Positions 7,050-38,030 of a stretch of 64,000 nucleotides of DNA are shown piece after piece. The first letter of the stretch is position 1; each line of letters starts with the position of its first letter. The position numbers and the translations under genes were made by a program. The DNA comes from an uncultured Bdellovibrionales bacterium (GTDB lineage: Bacteria; Patescibacteriota; Minisyncoccia; Moranbacterales; UBA9337): positions 39,256 to 103,255 of the forward strand of contig CAZSCV010000005.1 in the NCBI GenBank assembly GCA_964605525.1, written 5' to 3'. The notes beneath the pieces are model-generated. The model ran no database searches, was not told the DNA's origin, and saw only the letters and a list, made by a program, of their open reading frames with translations.

Positions 7050-7679
7050 ATGATATTAAAAATTTTATTGCGAGAGATAAGATATGTATTTTCAGTAACG
7101 AAGAGGTTTTTTATAAGTCCAAAATTTCCAAAAAATAAAGACGGAAAGATCTTGATTCATATTGGATGCGGAGATATAAAAGACTCTTGTTTCGTGAATA
7201 TTGATGCGCGACCCATGGAGCATATTCATTATGTAACAAAAAATGTTGATAATTTAAGCTTCCTTCCATCTAAAAGTGTTGATTTATTGTATATGTGTCA
7301 TGTTATGGAGCATTTTGATAGAGCAAAATCTGTCATGGTTACAAAAGAATGCTTTAGGGTTCTCAAACATGGCGGAATATTGAGAATTTCCGTTCCAGAC
7401 TTCGATCGAATAGTTGATATTTATCTTGATAACAATAGAAACATGAAGGCTATTATAGCCCCGTTATTTGGAGGACAAGATTATGAGTTTAATTACCATT
7501 ACAATATGTTCAACAGAGAAAGTCTTGGTGAATTATTTAAACAATGCGGTTTTCGTATTACAAGAGAATGGAAGCCTGATGATGTGCAGTATCATAAATT
7601 TGATGATTGGTCGCGAAGAAAATTTAGCGTCGATGATAAAAAGTATATCATAAGTCTGAATTTGGAGGCTGTTAAATAA
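7050..7679 (+). CDS. class I SAM-dependent methyltransferase
   Basis: Motif I-like ILIHIGCGD and HVMEHF. Confidence 0.6.
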   Translation: MILKILLREIRYVFSVTKRFFISPKFPKNKDGKILIHIGCGDIKDSCFVNIDARPMEHIHYVTKNVDNLSFLPSKSVDLLYMCHVMEHFDRAKSVMVTKECFRVLKHGGILRISVPDFDRIVDIYLDNNRNMKAIIAPLFGGQDYEFNYHYNMFNRESLGELFKQCGFRITREWKPDDVQYHKFDDWSRRKFSVDDKKYIISLNLEAVK

Positions 7680-34880: not shown

Positions 34881-34899
34881 TAATTGAAATAAAAAAAGT

Positions 34900-35253
34900 A
34901 TGAAAACTGAACAGTCATCCGGTTTTGAGGGTTTGCCGGAAAATAGTGTGAGTAATTTTGAAGAACCGAAAGATCTTCCTCCTTTTGCGGCGGAAATCAA
35001 AAGCGCAATGGAAGGGGAGTCGGGATGTGATTTGTTAAAAAGGTTTCTTTCCACGGAAGTTTTGTCTGATTCCAAAAAAGTTGAAAAATTGGATTTGATT
35101 TTAAATTCCATAGGAGAAACTCCGCGCTCTCTTTTCTTGGCTGAAAATGAAGGCGCGGCTGCCATCGAATCGCTCAGAGAACTTCTTGTTTCGGAAATCG
35201 ACAAAGAAGCAGAAAAGAAACGAAGAAACGAATTAAAGGATATTTTGGGATAA
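34900..35253 (+). CDS. hypothetical acidic protein
   Basis: ORF only. No recognisable motifs. Confidence 0.3.
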   Translation: MKTEQSSGFEGLPENSVSNFEEPKDLPPFAAEIKSAMEGESGCDLLKRFLSTEVLSDSKKVEKLDLILNSIGETPRSLFLAENEGAAAIESLRELLVSEIDKEAEKKRRNELKDILG

Positions 35254-35280
35254 AATGTTGTTTCTGCATTCTGAATAACC

Positions 35281-35371
35281 TTGTCATTTCCGCTCTAATA
35301 TTTTGTTACTCCCGCTCTTAATTTTGTTACTCCCGCTCTTAATTTTGTCATTCCCGCGGAGGCGGGAATCC
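35281..35371 (+). repeat. four tandem ~21-bp units (ttgtcatttccgctctaatat / ttgttactcccgctcttaatt x2 / ttgtcattcccgcggaggcgggaatcc); the last unit is the left palindromic inverted repeat
   Basis: Direct inspection. Units degenerate towards the 5' end. Confidence 0.8.
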
Positions 35372-35374
35372 AGC

Positions 35375-35665
35375 ATGAGTATGAAAATATATTGCGTTTA
35401 CATTTTAACCAACCAAAGGAATGGAACGTTATACATTGGAATAACGAGTAATTTAAAGAATAGAATTTTTCAACATAAAGAAAAAATGTTCGAAGGTTTT
35501 ACGAAAAAATATGGAATTGACAAATTGATTTATTTTGAACAAACGGAAGATGTGCAAAGCGCCTTGCGCAGAGAAAAACAATTGAAAAAATGGAATAGGG
35601 ATTGGAAATTGAGATTGATTGAAGAAAAAAATCCCCAATGGAAAGATTTATATGATGAATTATAA
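35375..35665 (+). CDS. GIY-YIG nuclease family protein (UPF0213/YhbQ-like)
   Basis: KIYCVYILTNQRNGTLYIGITSNLKNRIFQH and a KKWNRDWK tail. The start is reset to the ATG at 35375; the tracked ORF begins inside the repeats. Confidence 0.75.
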   Translation: MSMKIYCVYILTNQRNGTLYIGITSNLKNRIFQHKEKMFEGFTKKYGIDKLIYFEQTEDVQSALRREKQLKKWNRDWKLRLIEEKNPQWKDLYDEL

Positions 35666-35688
35666 ATTTGTGCAGTTGTAAGTTTTCT

Positions 35689-35713
35689 GGATTCCCGCCT
35701 CCGCGGGAATGAC
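35689..35713. repeat. right palindromic inverted repeat ggattcccgcctccgcgggaatgac, the exact reverse complement of 35347..35371
   Basis: 25/25 reverse-complement match. Each copy can fold as a 7-bp stem hairpin. It is followed by a purine-rich gggaatga-type degenerate repeat run to ~35800. Confidence 0.85.
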
Positions 35714-35814
35714 AAGTGGAGGTGGGAATGATAAAAAAGAGATGGGAATAATGAAGTGAAGAAGAGAATGATAAGGTAAAGAAGTGGGGGATGATGAGTA
35801 GAGAGGGAAGCCTT

Positions 35815-35853
35815 ATAAATAAAAAATCGGCAGGCGCAACTTGTGCGTCTGCC
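35815..35853 (-). terminator. rho-independent terminator for the minus-strand gene 35861..36304
   Basis: Hairpin ggcaggcgcaacttgtgcgtctgcc with a T-run on the minus strand. Confidence 0.6.
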
Positions 35854-35860
35854 AATTGAA

Positions 35861-36304
35861 TCAAGGAAATTGATAATACGCCTTGTCGTATTCGTCTGTT
35901 TTATTATTGGTGAATTTTTCGGAATGAAACATTATTTGATTTCCGTTCCTAAGATTTAAATAATAATCGCCAGTCGACATCATTGGCACCATTAGTAGCG
36001 ATTCATTATTAACATCCGCAGTTGTGCTGGTCTTGATGACCAGCACGCTTTTCACAAAATCCTTGGGAAAAAACAATACAGCGGAACTGGATTCCTTAAT
36101 AATGTTAGCTTGCCGGGTGATCGTTTCTTCCAGCTCGGCAATGCGGTTGTCTTTTTTTACAATTGCGGTCGCACCCATAACGAATCCCGCCAGCAGTACG
36201 GATACGAGAACTATTAATCCGATTATTTTTTCTTTTTCCAATGCCTGTTGTTGATTCATCTTTTCTCCTCCCCGAGAATTTTTATTTATGGTATAATAAT
36301 ACAA
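35861..36304 (-). CDS. hypothetical single-pass membrane protein
   Basis: ORF with one TM helix. A likely alternative start at MNQQQ shortens it by 15 codons. Confidence 0.35.
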   Translation of the reverse strand: MYYYTINKNSRGGEKMNQQQALEKEKIIGLIVLVSVLLAGFVMGATAIVKKDNRIAELEETITRQANIIKESSSAVLFFPKDFVKSVLVIKTSTTADVNNESLLMVPMMSTGDYYLNLRNGNQIMFHSEKFTNNKTDEYDKAYYQFP

Positions 36305-36338
36305 ATTGTTAAATTAACTGTCGACTGACTAACTTCTA

Positions 36339-38030
36339 ATGTTTTCATATTTTCGACAATTTGTCAATGCGGGGAAACCCCTCCTCAATCCTCCCCTTGG
36401 AAAAGGGAGGAGGTTTGGGATTGGAGCTTGGCTAATTTGGGCCAATGTTTTTTTGGTTTTCTTTTTGATTTTGCTTTCCAATTTCTCTGTTTTGCCAGTG
36501 AAAAATGTTGGGGATTTTCTTTTTTTTGCGGTGATTGTTTTGCTGTTTTCTTTATACCGTCCAGGGTGGGCGTTTTTGTTTTTTGTGGGGACGATTGCTT
36601 TGGAGAATGTGAATTTGGCGCCAAAAGAATTGGGATTGGCAGTGCGACCGTATCAGCTTTTGGGTGCCGCTTCTTTGATTGCTGTTGTGATTCGATATTT
36701 TACCAAGCGTCTTTCATTTGCATTGCCAAAATGGAATTGGATTGACACGTTGATTTTGGTTTTTGCATCAAGTGGATTTGTCAGTGCGCTGGCGAGTCCG
36801 ATTTCCAAAGGAATTGCGTTCAAGCAATCGATCGTGATTGCAAGTTTTGCGGCGCTGTATTTTTTGACGAGGATTTTTATTCAGGACTTGAAGGATGTGA
36901 AAAAAATAATTCCGTATTTTTTGAGTTCGTCGGTGGTTGTGATTGGATATGGAATTTGGCAAAACTGGCGATTTGTTCGCGGATTTTCTCATTTTGAAGT
37001 GATGCCTGGGCGTCCCAATGCGACATTTTCCGAGGCGGACTGGGCCGGAATTTATTTAACTTTTTTATTAAGTGTGATATACGCATTGGTTTTCTTTTTT
37101 TGTAAAACTCAAGGCGATGCAAATTCCGGAATTTCCAATTTCCAATTTCCAATTTCTAAACAATTTCCAATTCTTAAATTAAATAATTTAAAATTTAAAA
37201 TCCAAAATTTTTTCTTATACTTAATTCTTACTTCTTTATTCTTGATTCTTATTCTAACTGTTGCACGGAGCGCTTGGTTGGGAGCGGGGGCTGTTAGCGT
37301 TCTGTTTTTTGCGTTTTGCGTTTGGTATTATTTTAAGAATAAAAATTCAAAAATTCTCTGGATTCCCGCTTTCACGGGAATGACATTGGTATTGGCGATT
37401 CTTATTATTAAAGTTTTCGGTTTGACGAATTTTGAATTGGGAAATCGAATTCAAAGCACCGGGTCAGGACTTCAGGAGATTACAATCTCTTGCTTGTCCG
37501 TATCGAAGATTGACCCCGAGTTGGTGATTGCGGATGTCAAAGAGTTGGAACAATATGGTTGCCGGCATATCAATTTGGAGGAAATTGAAAGTGAAGAATC
37601 GATGGGAAATTTTGTTGCGCGCGTAAAAAGAAATGATCCGAACGTGAATATTCGCGCTGAAATTTATCAATCGTCGTGGGAGCAAATCAAAGCGCATCCG
37701 ATTTTGGGAATTGGCTGGGGGAATATTTCGCAAATTTTGGGAACGGATGATTTGGGACACGGCCTTAATGCGAGTAATATATTTTTAGAAATATGGCTGG
37801 GAGCGGGACTATTAGGTATTGTTAGCTTCATTGTTATTTTAGGATTAATATTAATGCAAGGTATTCGTTTATTATATGAAGGAATCAAGAGTCAGGAATC
37901 AAGAATTATGATTTTTGGATTTTTTATTATTTTGAGCCTATGCGCAATTGTTGTTCCAAATTTGTTTAATTCCGGAATTATGTTAGGATTTTTGTGGGTA
38001 TGGCTGGCGGTAGTGCAAGCAAAAATATGA
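36339..38030 (+). CDS. O-antigen ligase/polymerase family membrane protein (Wzy_C-like) with in-frame repeat insertions
   Basis: Polytopic, with the Wzy_C-type motif VARSAWLGAGAV. It contains a low-complexity insert (NSGISNFQFPISKQFPILKLNNLKFKIQNFF) and, in frame, a copy of the 25-bp palindrome. Confidence 0.55.
   Translation: MFSYFRQFVNAGKPLLNPPLGKGRRFGIGAWLIWANVFLVFFLILLSNFSVLPVKNVGDFLFFAVIVLLFSLYRPGWAFLFFVGTIALENVNLAPKELGLAVRPYQLLGAASLIAVVIRYFTKRLSFALPKWNWIDTLILVFASSGFVSALASPISKGIAFKQSIVIASFAALYFLTRIFIQDLKDVKKIIPYFLSSSVVVIGYGIWQNWRFVRGFSHFEVMPGRPNATFSEADWAGIYLTFLLSVIYALVFFFCKTQGDANSGISNFQFPISKQFPILKLNNLKFKIQNFFLYLILTSLFLILILTVARSAWLGAGAVSVLFFAFCVWYYFKNKNSKILWIPAFTGMTLVLAILIIKVFGLTNFELGNRIQSTGSGLQEITISCLSVSKIDPELVIADVKELEQYGCRHINLEEIESEESMGNFVARVKRNDPNVNIRAEIYQSSWEQIKAHPILGIGWGNISQILGTDDLGHGLNASNIFLEIWLGAGLLGIVSFIVILGLILMQGIRLLYEGIKSQESRIMIFGFFIILSLCAIVVPNLFNSGIMLGFLWVWLAVVQAKI
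37125..37230 (+). repeat. ttccaattt-type low-complexity element inserted in frame in the ligase gene; a related copy lies in trmD at 44985..45045
   Basis: Shared string caatttccaatttc.aaacaattt.c.aatt, giving a shared peptide QFPISKQF in two unrelated proteins. Confidence 0.7.
37360..37384. repeat. third copy of the 25-bp palindromic element (ggattcccgctttcacgggaatgac), in frame inside the ligase gene
   Basis: Same stem and flanks as 35689..35713, with a different loop. It encodes WIPAFTGMT within a TM segment. Confidence 0.75.

Follow-up and report, generated by a model that had tools for sequence, protein, structure and literature searches.

An Ssn-family GIY-YIG nuclease gene flanked by inward-facing NTS motifs in a Candidatus Moranbacteria genome

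The ssn gene and its flanking hairpins

The subject of this study is a small nuclease gene, together with the hairpin-forming repeats on either side of it, in a 64-kb stretch of DNA (hereafter the window) from an uncultured member of Candidatus Moranbacteria (Patescibacteria; GenBank contig CAZSCV010000005.1). The gene, ssn, occupies positions 35375-35665 of the plus strand, between genes for a GT4 glycosyltransferase and a Wzy-like protein (O-antigen ligase family), and encodes a 96-amino-acid, single-domain GIY-YIG nuclease with the catalytic residues Y9, Y20, and E67. An initial annotation had described a GIY-YIG (UPF0213) gene bracketed by exact 25-bp palindromic inverted repeats, and had proposed either a minimal mobile or selfish unit, or a nuclease that acts on the palindromes.

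A closely related arrangement has been published for Neisseria. Chenal et al. (Nat Commun 2025; PMC11893778) described the Neisseria Transformation Sequence (NTS; also called the "Ssn-related motif", SRM), CGTCATTCCCGCGMAVGCGGGAATCYRG, as a directional extension of the dRS3 palindrome, and SsnA as a 94-amino-acid single-domain GIY-YIG protein of the CDD family cd10448, also named GIY-YIG_unchar_3. SsnA binds the NTS only as single-stranded DNA (ssDNA) and cuts a few nucleotides upstream of it, whereas the reverse strand, duplex DNA, and RNA are left uncut. The three bases before the palindrome (GTC) weigh most for cutting and the C after it for binding, while the loop is dispensable (Chenal et al., 2025).

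The inverted repeat of the window is real and perfectly complementary, but its arms are 29 nt long (35345-35373 and 35687-35715) rather than 25, with the ssn open reading frame (ORF) in between. Folded as ssDNA, each arm forms the hairpin that had been described, an 8-bp stem (ATTCCCGC/GCGGGAAT) with a 4-nt loop (free energy -8.9 kcal/mol, z ~ -2.5). The left NTS/SRM, TGTCATTCCCGCGGAGGCGGGAATCCAG, lies at 35346-35373 on the plus strand (stem 35350-35357 paired with 35362-35369, loop GGAG); the right one is the same 28-mer, reads forward on the minus strand at 35687-35714, and begins 21 nt downstream of ssn. Thus, the two motifs point inward, plus upstream and minus downstream of the gene. Both lie within 500 bp of ssn, and each matches the Neisseria consensus at 26 of 28 positions, the two mismatches being the first base and one loop base. 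A search for the 28-nt consensus with at most three mismatches returned three matches in the window against 0.00 in 100 shuffles, and the pattern TCCCGC-N(1-12)-GCGGGA two matches against 0.01 expected; a chance occurrence is thus ruled out. The string TGTC-ATTCCCGC...GCGGGAAT-C-CAG is present in all three window copies, so that GTC and the post-stem C are kept. The strict published SRM pattern is matched exactly by the third copy and missed at one loop base by the two flanking copies.

The left NTS stops 1 nt upstream of the ssn ATG, and its loop GGAG gives GGAGG 12 nt before the start codon. Because of this position, any ribosome-binding site of ssn, or any regulation of it, must overlap the recognition hairpin. 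At gathering thresholds, Rfam matched no family anywhere in the window, and the hairpins correspond to no catalogued RNA; likewise, no tRNAs were found in the window. In the promoter and terminator scan, ssn received no promoter call and the right hairpin no terminator call; neither hairpin is followed by a T-run. Further to the right (35821-35853), an A-run and an imperfect 10-bp G+C-rich hairpin (35829-35853), which the consensus scan missed, are kept in two relatives (L001 and L006). This element is likely the intrinsic terminator of the converging 147-amino-acid gene on the minus strand and lies outside the Ssn module.

The protein was identified as a GIY-YIG domain protein by Pfam PF01541 (E 1e-17, residues 6-79 of 96), and no further domain was found in it, neither an accessory DNA-binding domain nor a match to a transposase family. 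It is 58% identical over 86 residues (pairwise E 1e-39) to the SsnA orthologue of Neisseria gonorrhoeae, read from NZ_CP119142.1, and a tblastn search of a 7.3-Gb collection connected it to the same record with an E value of 2e-28. With the gonococcal orthologue in place of SsnA, the window protein lies within the similarity limits of Chenal et al. (2025; blastp E < 1e-10, at least 75% query cover). In contrast, identity to E. coli YhbQ, the true UPF0213 protein, is 28% (pairwise E 5e-8; the query sequence was validated by its 99% match to annotated yhbQ). YhbQ belongs to a CDD subfamily other than that of Ssn. The GIY-YIG part of the initial annotation was therefore correct, whereas the label "UPF0213" should, as judged from the sequence, give way to "Ssn family".

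The residues Y9, Y20, and E67 are invariant in 18 diverse homologues and have the same spacing as Y6, Y17, and E64 of N. meningitidis SsnA, the residues mutated by Chenal et al. (2025); the numbering was reproduced from the gonococcal ORF and from their paper. The nearest database proteins are from Candidatus Moranbacteria, with 96% identity to a GW2011_GWE2_35_2- protein, and thousands of homologues with 92-119 amino acids were found in many phyla. A search of PDB sequences gave no solved relative at E ≤ 0.01, and in NCBIfam there was no specific model, the sole match being TIGR01453 with 25 bits against a cut-off of 56. A longer ORF of 120 amino acids with a TTG start was rejected: its extension is the translated NTS ("SFPRRRESS"), for which the homologues give no support. 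The gonococcal record itself (L093, 1880219-1883476) is a 2.17-Mb N. gonorrhoeae chromosome filed as a "plasmid" in PLSDB; in it, the ATG of the ssnA orthologue does not share the frame in which VYILASQRNGTLYIG... is read, an apparent frameshift near the N-terminus.

Based on the match of the repeat to the NTS and on the far higher identity of the protein to SsnA than to YhbQ, we consider the locus to be an NTS-ssnA-NTS module of the kind described by Chenal et al. (2025), with the flanking and third repeats as the cognate motif (probability about 0.9).

Gene, motif, and half-site arrays across species

To test the link between gene and motif independently, 80 loci with Ssn relatives, drawn from 80 GTDB species, were scanned with the published SRM pattern and with an NTS pattern allowing four mismatches; the species covered Planctomycetota, Pseudomonadota, Bacteroidota, Chloroflexota, and Omnitrophota, among others, as well as several classes of Patescibacteria. 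A motif was present within 150 bp of ssn at 64 of the 80 loci and on both sides at 40; for RefSeq ssnA homologues, a motif nearby was reported in 71% and motifs on both sides in 42% (Chenal et al., 2025). The inward arrangement of the window was the commonest (36 of 80 loci). Of the 48 nearest upstream motifs, 38 read forward on the strand of the gene (plus), and of the 56 nearest downstream motifs, 44 read forward on the opposite strand (minus). Motif density amounted to 5.17/kb near ssn and 0.115/kb elsewhere in the same loci, a 45-fold enrichment. The initial annotation had asked whether the palindrome accompanies GIY-YIG genes elsewhere or is scattered independently of them; across these species the association is tight.

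Among 79 distinct gene-proximal 28-nt motifs, positions G2, T3, and C25 were invariant and C4 was conserved to at least 90%. Stem cells were paired in 98.3% of cases, a value to be read with the choice of these motifs by pattern, which somewhat favours pairing. Compensatory changes occurred in six of the eight base pairs, and the covariation score was reached in none of 500 shuffles.

Both window motifs adjoin arrays of half-sites. In the left array (35278-35345, plus strand), the 5' half of the NTS and its 5' flank are present three times, in direct orientation and degenerate (GTCATTTCCGC, GTTACTCCCGC, GTTACTCCCGC), and these copies run with a period of 21-22 nt into the full motif. Counted with the left arm, this gives the four ~21-nt units that had been noted initially (35278-35362); Tandem Repeats Finder (TRF) reported period 21, 3.2 copies, and 91% matches. 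The purine-rich gggaatga-type run beyond the right copy is equally real and mirrors the left array: on the minus strand (35715-35795), four decaying 5' half-NTS units follow with a period of 19-23 nt and read, on the plus strand, GTGGGAATGAT (35722), ATGGGAATAAT (35742), AAGAGAATGAT (35762), and TGGGGGATGAT (35785). The left array, full NTS included, has four units in the window, three in L001, and two in L006, and the right array is shorter or different in both relatives.

Half-sites were then counted around 130 gene-proximal motifs, with full motifs masked, at most two mismatches to the 5' arm of the motif itself, and flanks of 90 nt. The 5' flank contained 38 matches on the same strand and five on the opposite strand, and the 3' flank two and seven, respectively, where chance would give about one match per flank and strand class. 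Such arrays, with periods of 16-23 nt across species, were found at 22 of the 130 gene-proximal motifs (17%) and at 11 of 70 distal ones; the window ssn has them on both sides. Half-repeat runs also adjoin the full NTSs beside the gonococcal ssnA. Neither the outward arrays of 5' half-sites nor the inward-orientation rule was found in the main text of Chenal et al. (2025), where the words "tandem" and "NIME" are absent and the single use of "array" has a different meaning.

Cleavage is also supported by 5' and 3' halves that are annealed to each other, and extended loops are tolerated (Chenal et al., 2025), so that the half-site units could be alternative Ssn substrates; an origin as by-products of nick repair is just as conceivable. 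The idea that the 21-nt phase of the array marks where Ssn cuts was dropped: in a tandem repeat, the choice of phase is arbitrary and says nothing about the cut site.

The locus in relatives and the boundaries of the module

In the relatives L001-L005 (96% Ssn identity) and L006 (84%), the gene order is Dus, GT4 glycosyltransferase, ssn, a small minus-strand ORF, and Wzy. Both NTSs are kept in L001 and L006 with unchanged stems and flanks, while the loops (left/right GGAG/GGAG in the window, GGAG/GAAG in L001, and GAAG/GCAG in L006) and the surrounding spacer differ. A homologue with 77% Ssn identity from another Moranbacteria genome lies in an unrelated context and is surrounded by 11 NTS copies.

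A third NTS, TGTCATTCCCGTGAAAGCGGGAATCCAG, absent from the initial annotation, was found about 1.7 kb downstream of the flanking pair (37358-37385, minus strand). It lies in frame in the Wzy-like ORF (36339-38030), encodes WIPAFTGMT, has two mismatches to the consensus, and folds at -6.9 kcal/mol. The same Wzy position carries it in L001, L006, and L088 with changes in the loop only; accordingly the stem codons (IPA...GMT) are constant among these relatives and the loop codons vary (FT, YA, CA). The Wzy of L091 (49% identical) has no NTS and unrelated residues at this place, with no indel or length difference, and the NTS segment is therefore not seen as a clean insertion into Wzy. An in-frame NTS in Wzy was not found in the main text of Chenal et al. 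(2025).

Towards its N-terminus, Wzy holds another in-frame hairpin repeat, which is G+C-rich and has no relation to the NTS (CCCTCTCCC-N3-GGGAGAGGG in L001, degenerate in the window); the amino acids encoded there are "...PSPQPSPRGRGG..." or "...GKPLLNPPLGKGRRF...". In L001, this repeat is found downstream of ssn as well. Its positions are 36377-36415 in the window and 7066-7100 and about 6455-6500 in L001, and the segment is missing in L094 and L091.

Empty sites, for which the initial annotation had suggested a search in relatives, do exist. A metagenome scan with Wzy yielded five loci, and the informative empty site was obtained via GT4 homologues: in L094 (GT4 83%, Wzy 78% identical), 11 nt separate the two genes, and ssn, NTS, and small ORFs are all missing; the junction is equally tight in the outgroups L096-L098 (GT4 64-65%). 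In L091 and L092, nothing but a small minus-strand ORF lies between GT4 and Wzy. In a neighbour-joining tree of GT4 and Wzy (1860 gap-free nt), the window grouped with L001 (99%) and the empty L094 with the filled L006 (83-90% bootstrap); GT4 alone did not resolve this. With an empty locus clustering beside a filled one, the presence of the cassette thus varies between close relatives, whether through loss, repeated gain, or allelic replacement. An arrangement held stable across distant relatives, the opposite of what the initial annotation expected of a mobile unit, was thus not observed. However, the presence/absence difference spans the whole spacer of 0.9-1.5 kb, other small ORFs included, and the NTSs are not its boundaries.

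The junction between GT4 and Wzy is a hot spot for insertions. In the window, the spacer (34881-36338, 1458 nt) holds a 117-amino-acid ORF with no Pfam match, ssn, and the membrane-like 147-amino-acid ORF; elsewhere it measures 6-11 nt (L094, L096, and L098), 497 nt (L091, one small minus-strand ORF), or 928 nt (L006, ssn and a 109-amino-acid ORF). The Logan contig of one relative (L095, 3743-3885) breaks off within the hairpin of the left NTS, directly behind an array of two half-site units. Since the NTS repeat evidently breaks short-read assemblies, cassette counts from metagenomes are probably underestimates.

Two genomes with ssn paralogues allowed the edges of the module to be located. 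The two copies in L030 have NTSs identical at 28 of 28 positions, 82% identity over the 330 columns between them, and 35-40% over 60 columns outside. Similarly, the L036/L081 copies have identical NTSs (28/28), 77% identity between, and 23% outside on the left; the right side ends at the contig end. Between such paralogous copies, the homology starts and stops within about 3-12 nt of the outer NTS edges. As homology between paralogues ends at the NTSs, NTS-ssn-NTS appears to be a discrete evolutionary unit, and its motifs are held more tightly than the gene.

In other lineages, ssn was found in other operons. In an Omnitrophica lineage (L099-L106), it lies between mutS and mutL, and in a Patescibacteria lineage (L107-L114) between metK and adenosine kinase/AdoHcy hydrolase genes; in these contexts, it is co-oriented with tightly packed neighbours, as it is between GT4 and Wzy in the window.

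Competing explanations, proposed role, and significance

If the window protein acts as its homologues do, the following would be expected. In ssDNA, the NTS would fold into its 8-bp hairpin, and Ssn, ignoring duplex DNA and RNA, would read the stem sequence and its asymmetric flanks (GTC on the 5' side, C on the 3' side). The resulting nick would fall in the motif-bearing strand, a few nucleotides to the 5' side of the motif, with the complementary strand of the same motif left uncut. Because the flanking motifs face inward, there is one cleavable motif per strand at the locus. From the oligonucleotide lengths in Chenal et al. (2025), the cuts are predicted just outside the gene, at about 35342/35343 on the plus strand, 5' of the left NTS, and at about 35717/35718 on the minus strand at the right NTS. 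The conservation of the critical nucleotides and residues favours the proposal of the initial annotation that the nuclease would act on the palindromes. In N. meningitidis, NTS-bearing ssDNA acquired by competence is processed or restricted (Chenal et al., 2025), and the most likely role here would likewise be the processing or restriction of NTS-bearing ssDNA, such as competence-acquired DNA. The gene-flanking motifs may be a legacy of the arrival of the module as a unit.

Several points weigh against this assignment. The protein was compared with a gonococcal orthologue from a chromosome record whose N-terminus looks frameshifted, and not with N. meningitidis CAX49033.1. The binding and cleavage biochemistry of the family comes from four homologues, Neisseria and Wolbachia among them, and Patescibacteria are absent from the main text of the paper (Chenal et al., 2025). 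The flanking copies have a G in the loop where the strict SRM demands H, albeit in a part reported as dispensable. Furthermore, three motifs in 64 kb stand against hundreds of genomic targets in pathogenic Neisseria; the picture of hundreds of targets is therefore not applicable here.

Two explanations dispense with a specific relation between Ssn and the motif, or with Ssn itself. The hairpins might be generic REP-like, terminator, or mRNA-stabilising elements that happen to lie beside a nuclease gene. They are located in the 5' and 3' untranslated regions of ssn and would fold in RNA too, the GGAGG of the upstream copy sits just before the ATG, and a regulatory role was the one first considered by Chenal et al. 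(2025). An incidental neighbourhood is nevertheless very improbable given the 45-fold enrichment near ssn with its strand rule, the lack of a T-run or terminator call, and the conservation in sequence of the unpaired flanks, which goes beyond structure; moreover, homologues bind and cleave the motif directly and RNA is no substrate (Chenal et al., 2025). Slightly less credible still is a DNA-damage-response nuclease of the UPF0213/YhbQ type or a classical, duplex-cutting GIY-YIG homing endonuclease. The common domain PF01541 and the sub-threshold match to TIGR01453, a model of group I intron endonucleases, speak for this reading, but the protein is much closer to SsnA than to YhbQ, consists of the nuclease domain only, and lies in no intron, intein, or phage context; phage records gave distant matches alone (34-39% identity). 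An I-TevI-type homing endonuclease in particular was discarded in view of the missing extra domain, the chromosomal glycosyltransferase operon, and the TIGR01453 score below cut-off, and an autonomous transposon with a strand-transfer transposase because GIY-YIG is the only domain.

Mobility of the module, the other proposal of the initial annotation, is plausible yet unproven. In this scenario, NTS-ssn-NTS would be an active minimal mobile element of about 370 bp in which Ssn nicks 5' of the inward-facing ends, ssDNA intermediates and host repair complete the movement, and solo NTSs and half-site scars are seeded on the way. Such a hypothesis was raised, without a test, by Chenal et al. (2025). 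It is consistent with the paralogue homology bounded by NTSs in L030 (on the left side in L036/L081), with the occurrence of ssn by lineage in unrelated, tightly packed operons (GT4-[ssn]-Wzy, mutS-[ssn]-mutL, and metK-[ssn]-pfkB), and with the empty GT4-Wzy junction in a close relative and three outgroups. Additionally, the identity between Ssn proteins of different phyla (55-70%) is as high as that found within Moranbacteria (64-77%), a sign that points to horizontal spread. On the other hand, the window holds a single copy with no ssn paralogue in its 64 kb, no target-site duplication is visible at the locus, synteny at the locus holds among relatives with Ssn identity as low as 84%, the local indel covers the whole spacer, and the right flank of L036 is not judgeable at its contig end. 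Identical Ssn proteins in differing contexts were not found either: P0002, P0086, and P0118, each on about 20 or more contigs, have one context apiece (the three being GT4-Wzy, mutS-mutL, and metK-pfkB). GIY-YIG enzymes hydrolyse DNA, and we know of no strand-transfer activity or covalent intermediate among them. On balance, active mobility appears unlikely. Somewhat more doubtful again is the fuller version, in which the ~370-bp unit is selfish and still active, works by a new type of mechanism (a hydrolytic GIY-YIG nickase of ssDNA hairpins plus host repair), and has half-site arrays that are scars of repeated nicking, strand-displacement synthesis, and flap re-ligation. If it were true, Ssn would locally give rise to tandem duplications and further hairpin copies, in-frame ones such as that in Wzy included.

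The preferred reading, an NTS-ssn-NTS module, can be set beside known systems. With SsnA/NTS of N. meningitidis, the window shares a single-domain protein of ~94-96 amino acids with the Y/Y/E residues, nearly the same directional 28-nt hairpin, and the order NTS-gene-NTS. It differs in its host, Candidatus Moranbacteria being unnamed in the main text of Chenal et al. (2025); in its three motifs per 64 kb, whereas hundreds cluster around surface-protein genes in Neisseria; in the inward direction of its motifs, where the nearest motifs at the gonococcal ssnA face outward; in its loop (GGAG against GMAV); and in that its function is predicted from sequence. All three window copies match the neisserial dRS3 (ATTCCC-N8-GGGAAT), but dRS3 was defined in Neisseria only, as an undirected 20-bp palindrome, while the window element has the longer, directional NTS flanks. 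An analogy to the REP/RAYT "REPtrons" was drawn by the Ssn authors themselves (Chenal et al., 2025): a small nuclease-type gene lies between inverted hairpin repeats that are recognised as ssDNA, and the repeat is dispersed. RAYT, however, is an HUH/Y1 enzyme with a covalent intermediate and has no sequence or fold relation to the hydrolytic GIY-YIG protein Ssn. IS200/IS605 elements (TnpA, "peel and paste") resemble the module in their subterminal ssDNA hairpins, strand specificity, and very small size, but both of their hairpins lie on one strand and TnpA rejoins DNA, whereas the window motifs lie on opposite strands, the enzyme class is another, and transposition is hypothetical. Rickettsia palindromic elements are in-frame insertions in protein genes. 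The NTS in Wzy is likewise a short palindrome in frame within an intact gene, though not a clean insertion in the alignment. YhbQ, an exodeoxyribonuclease of the DNA-damage response in E. coli, is also a stand-alone GIY-YIG protein of ~100 amino acids, separated from the window protein by its low identity; we know of no hairpin repeats that accompany its family.

The window locus is a new example of a system published in 2025, and our results confirm and extend that work; the observation is real and well explained rather than new. New pairs of Ssn and motif are of practical interest as sequence-specific ssDNA cutters. The orientation rule, the paralogue boundaries, the present and absent alleles, and the half-site arrays offer handles on the mobility of the module and on the multiplication of its repeat. 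For the family as a whole, the locus places the Ssn/NTS module in a small-genome Patescibacteria lineage in which the motif has not been amplified, so that the flanking pair looks like the core of the system, and the hundreds of dispersed copies in pathogens like a later elaboration.

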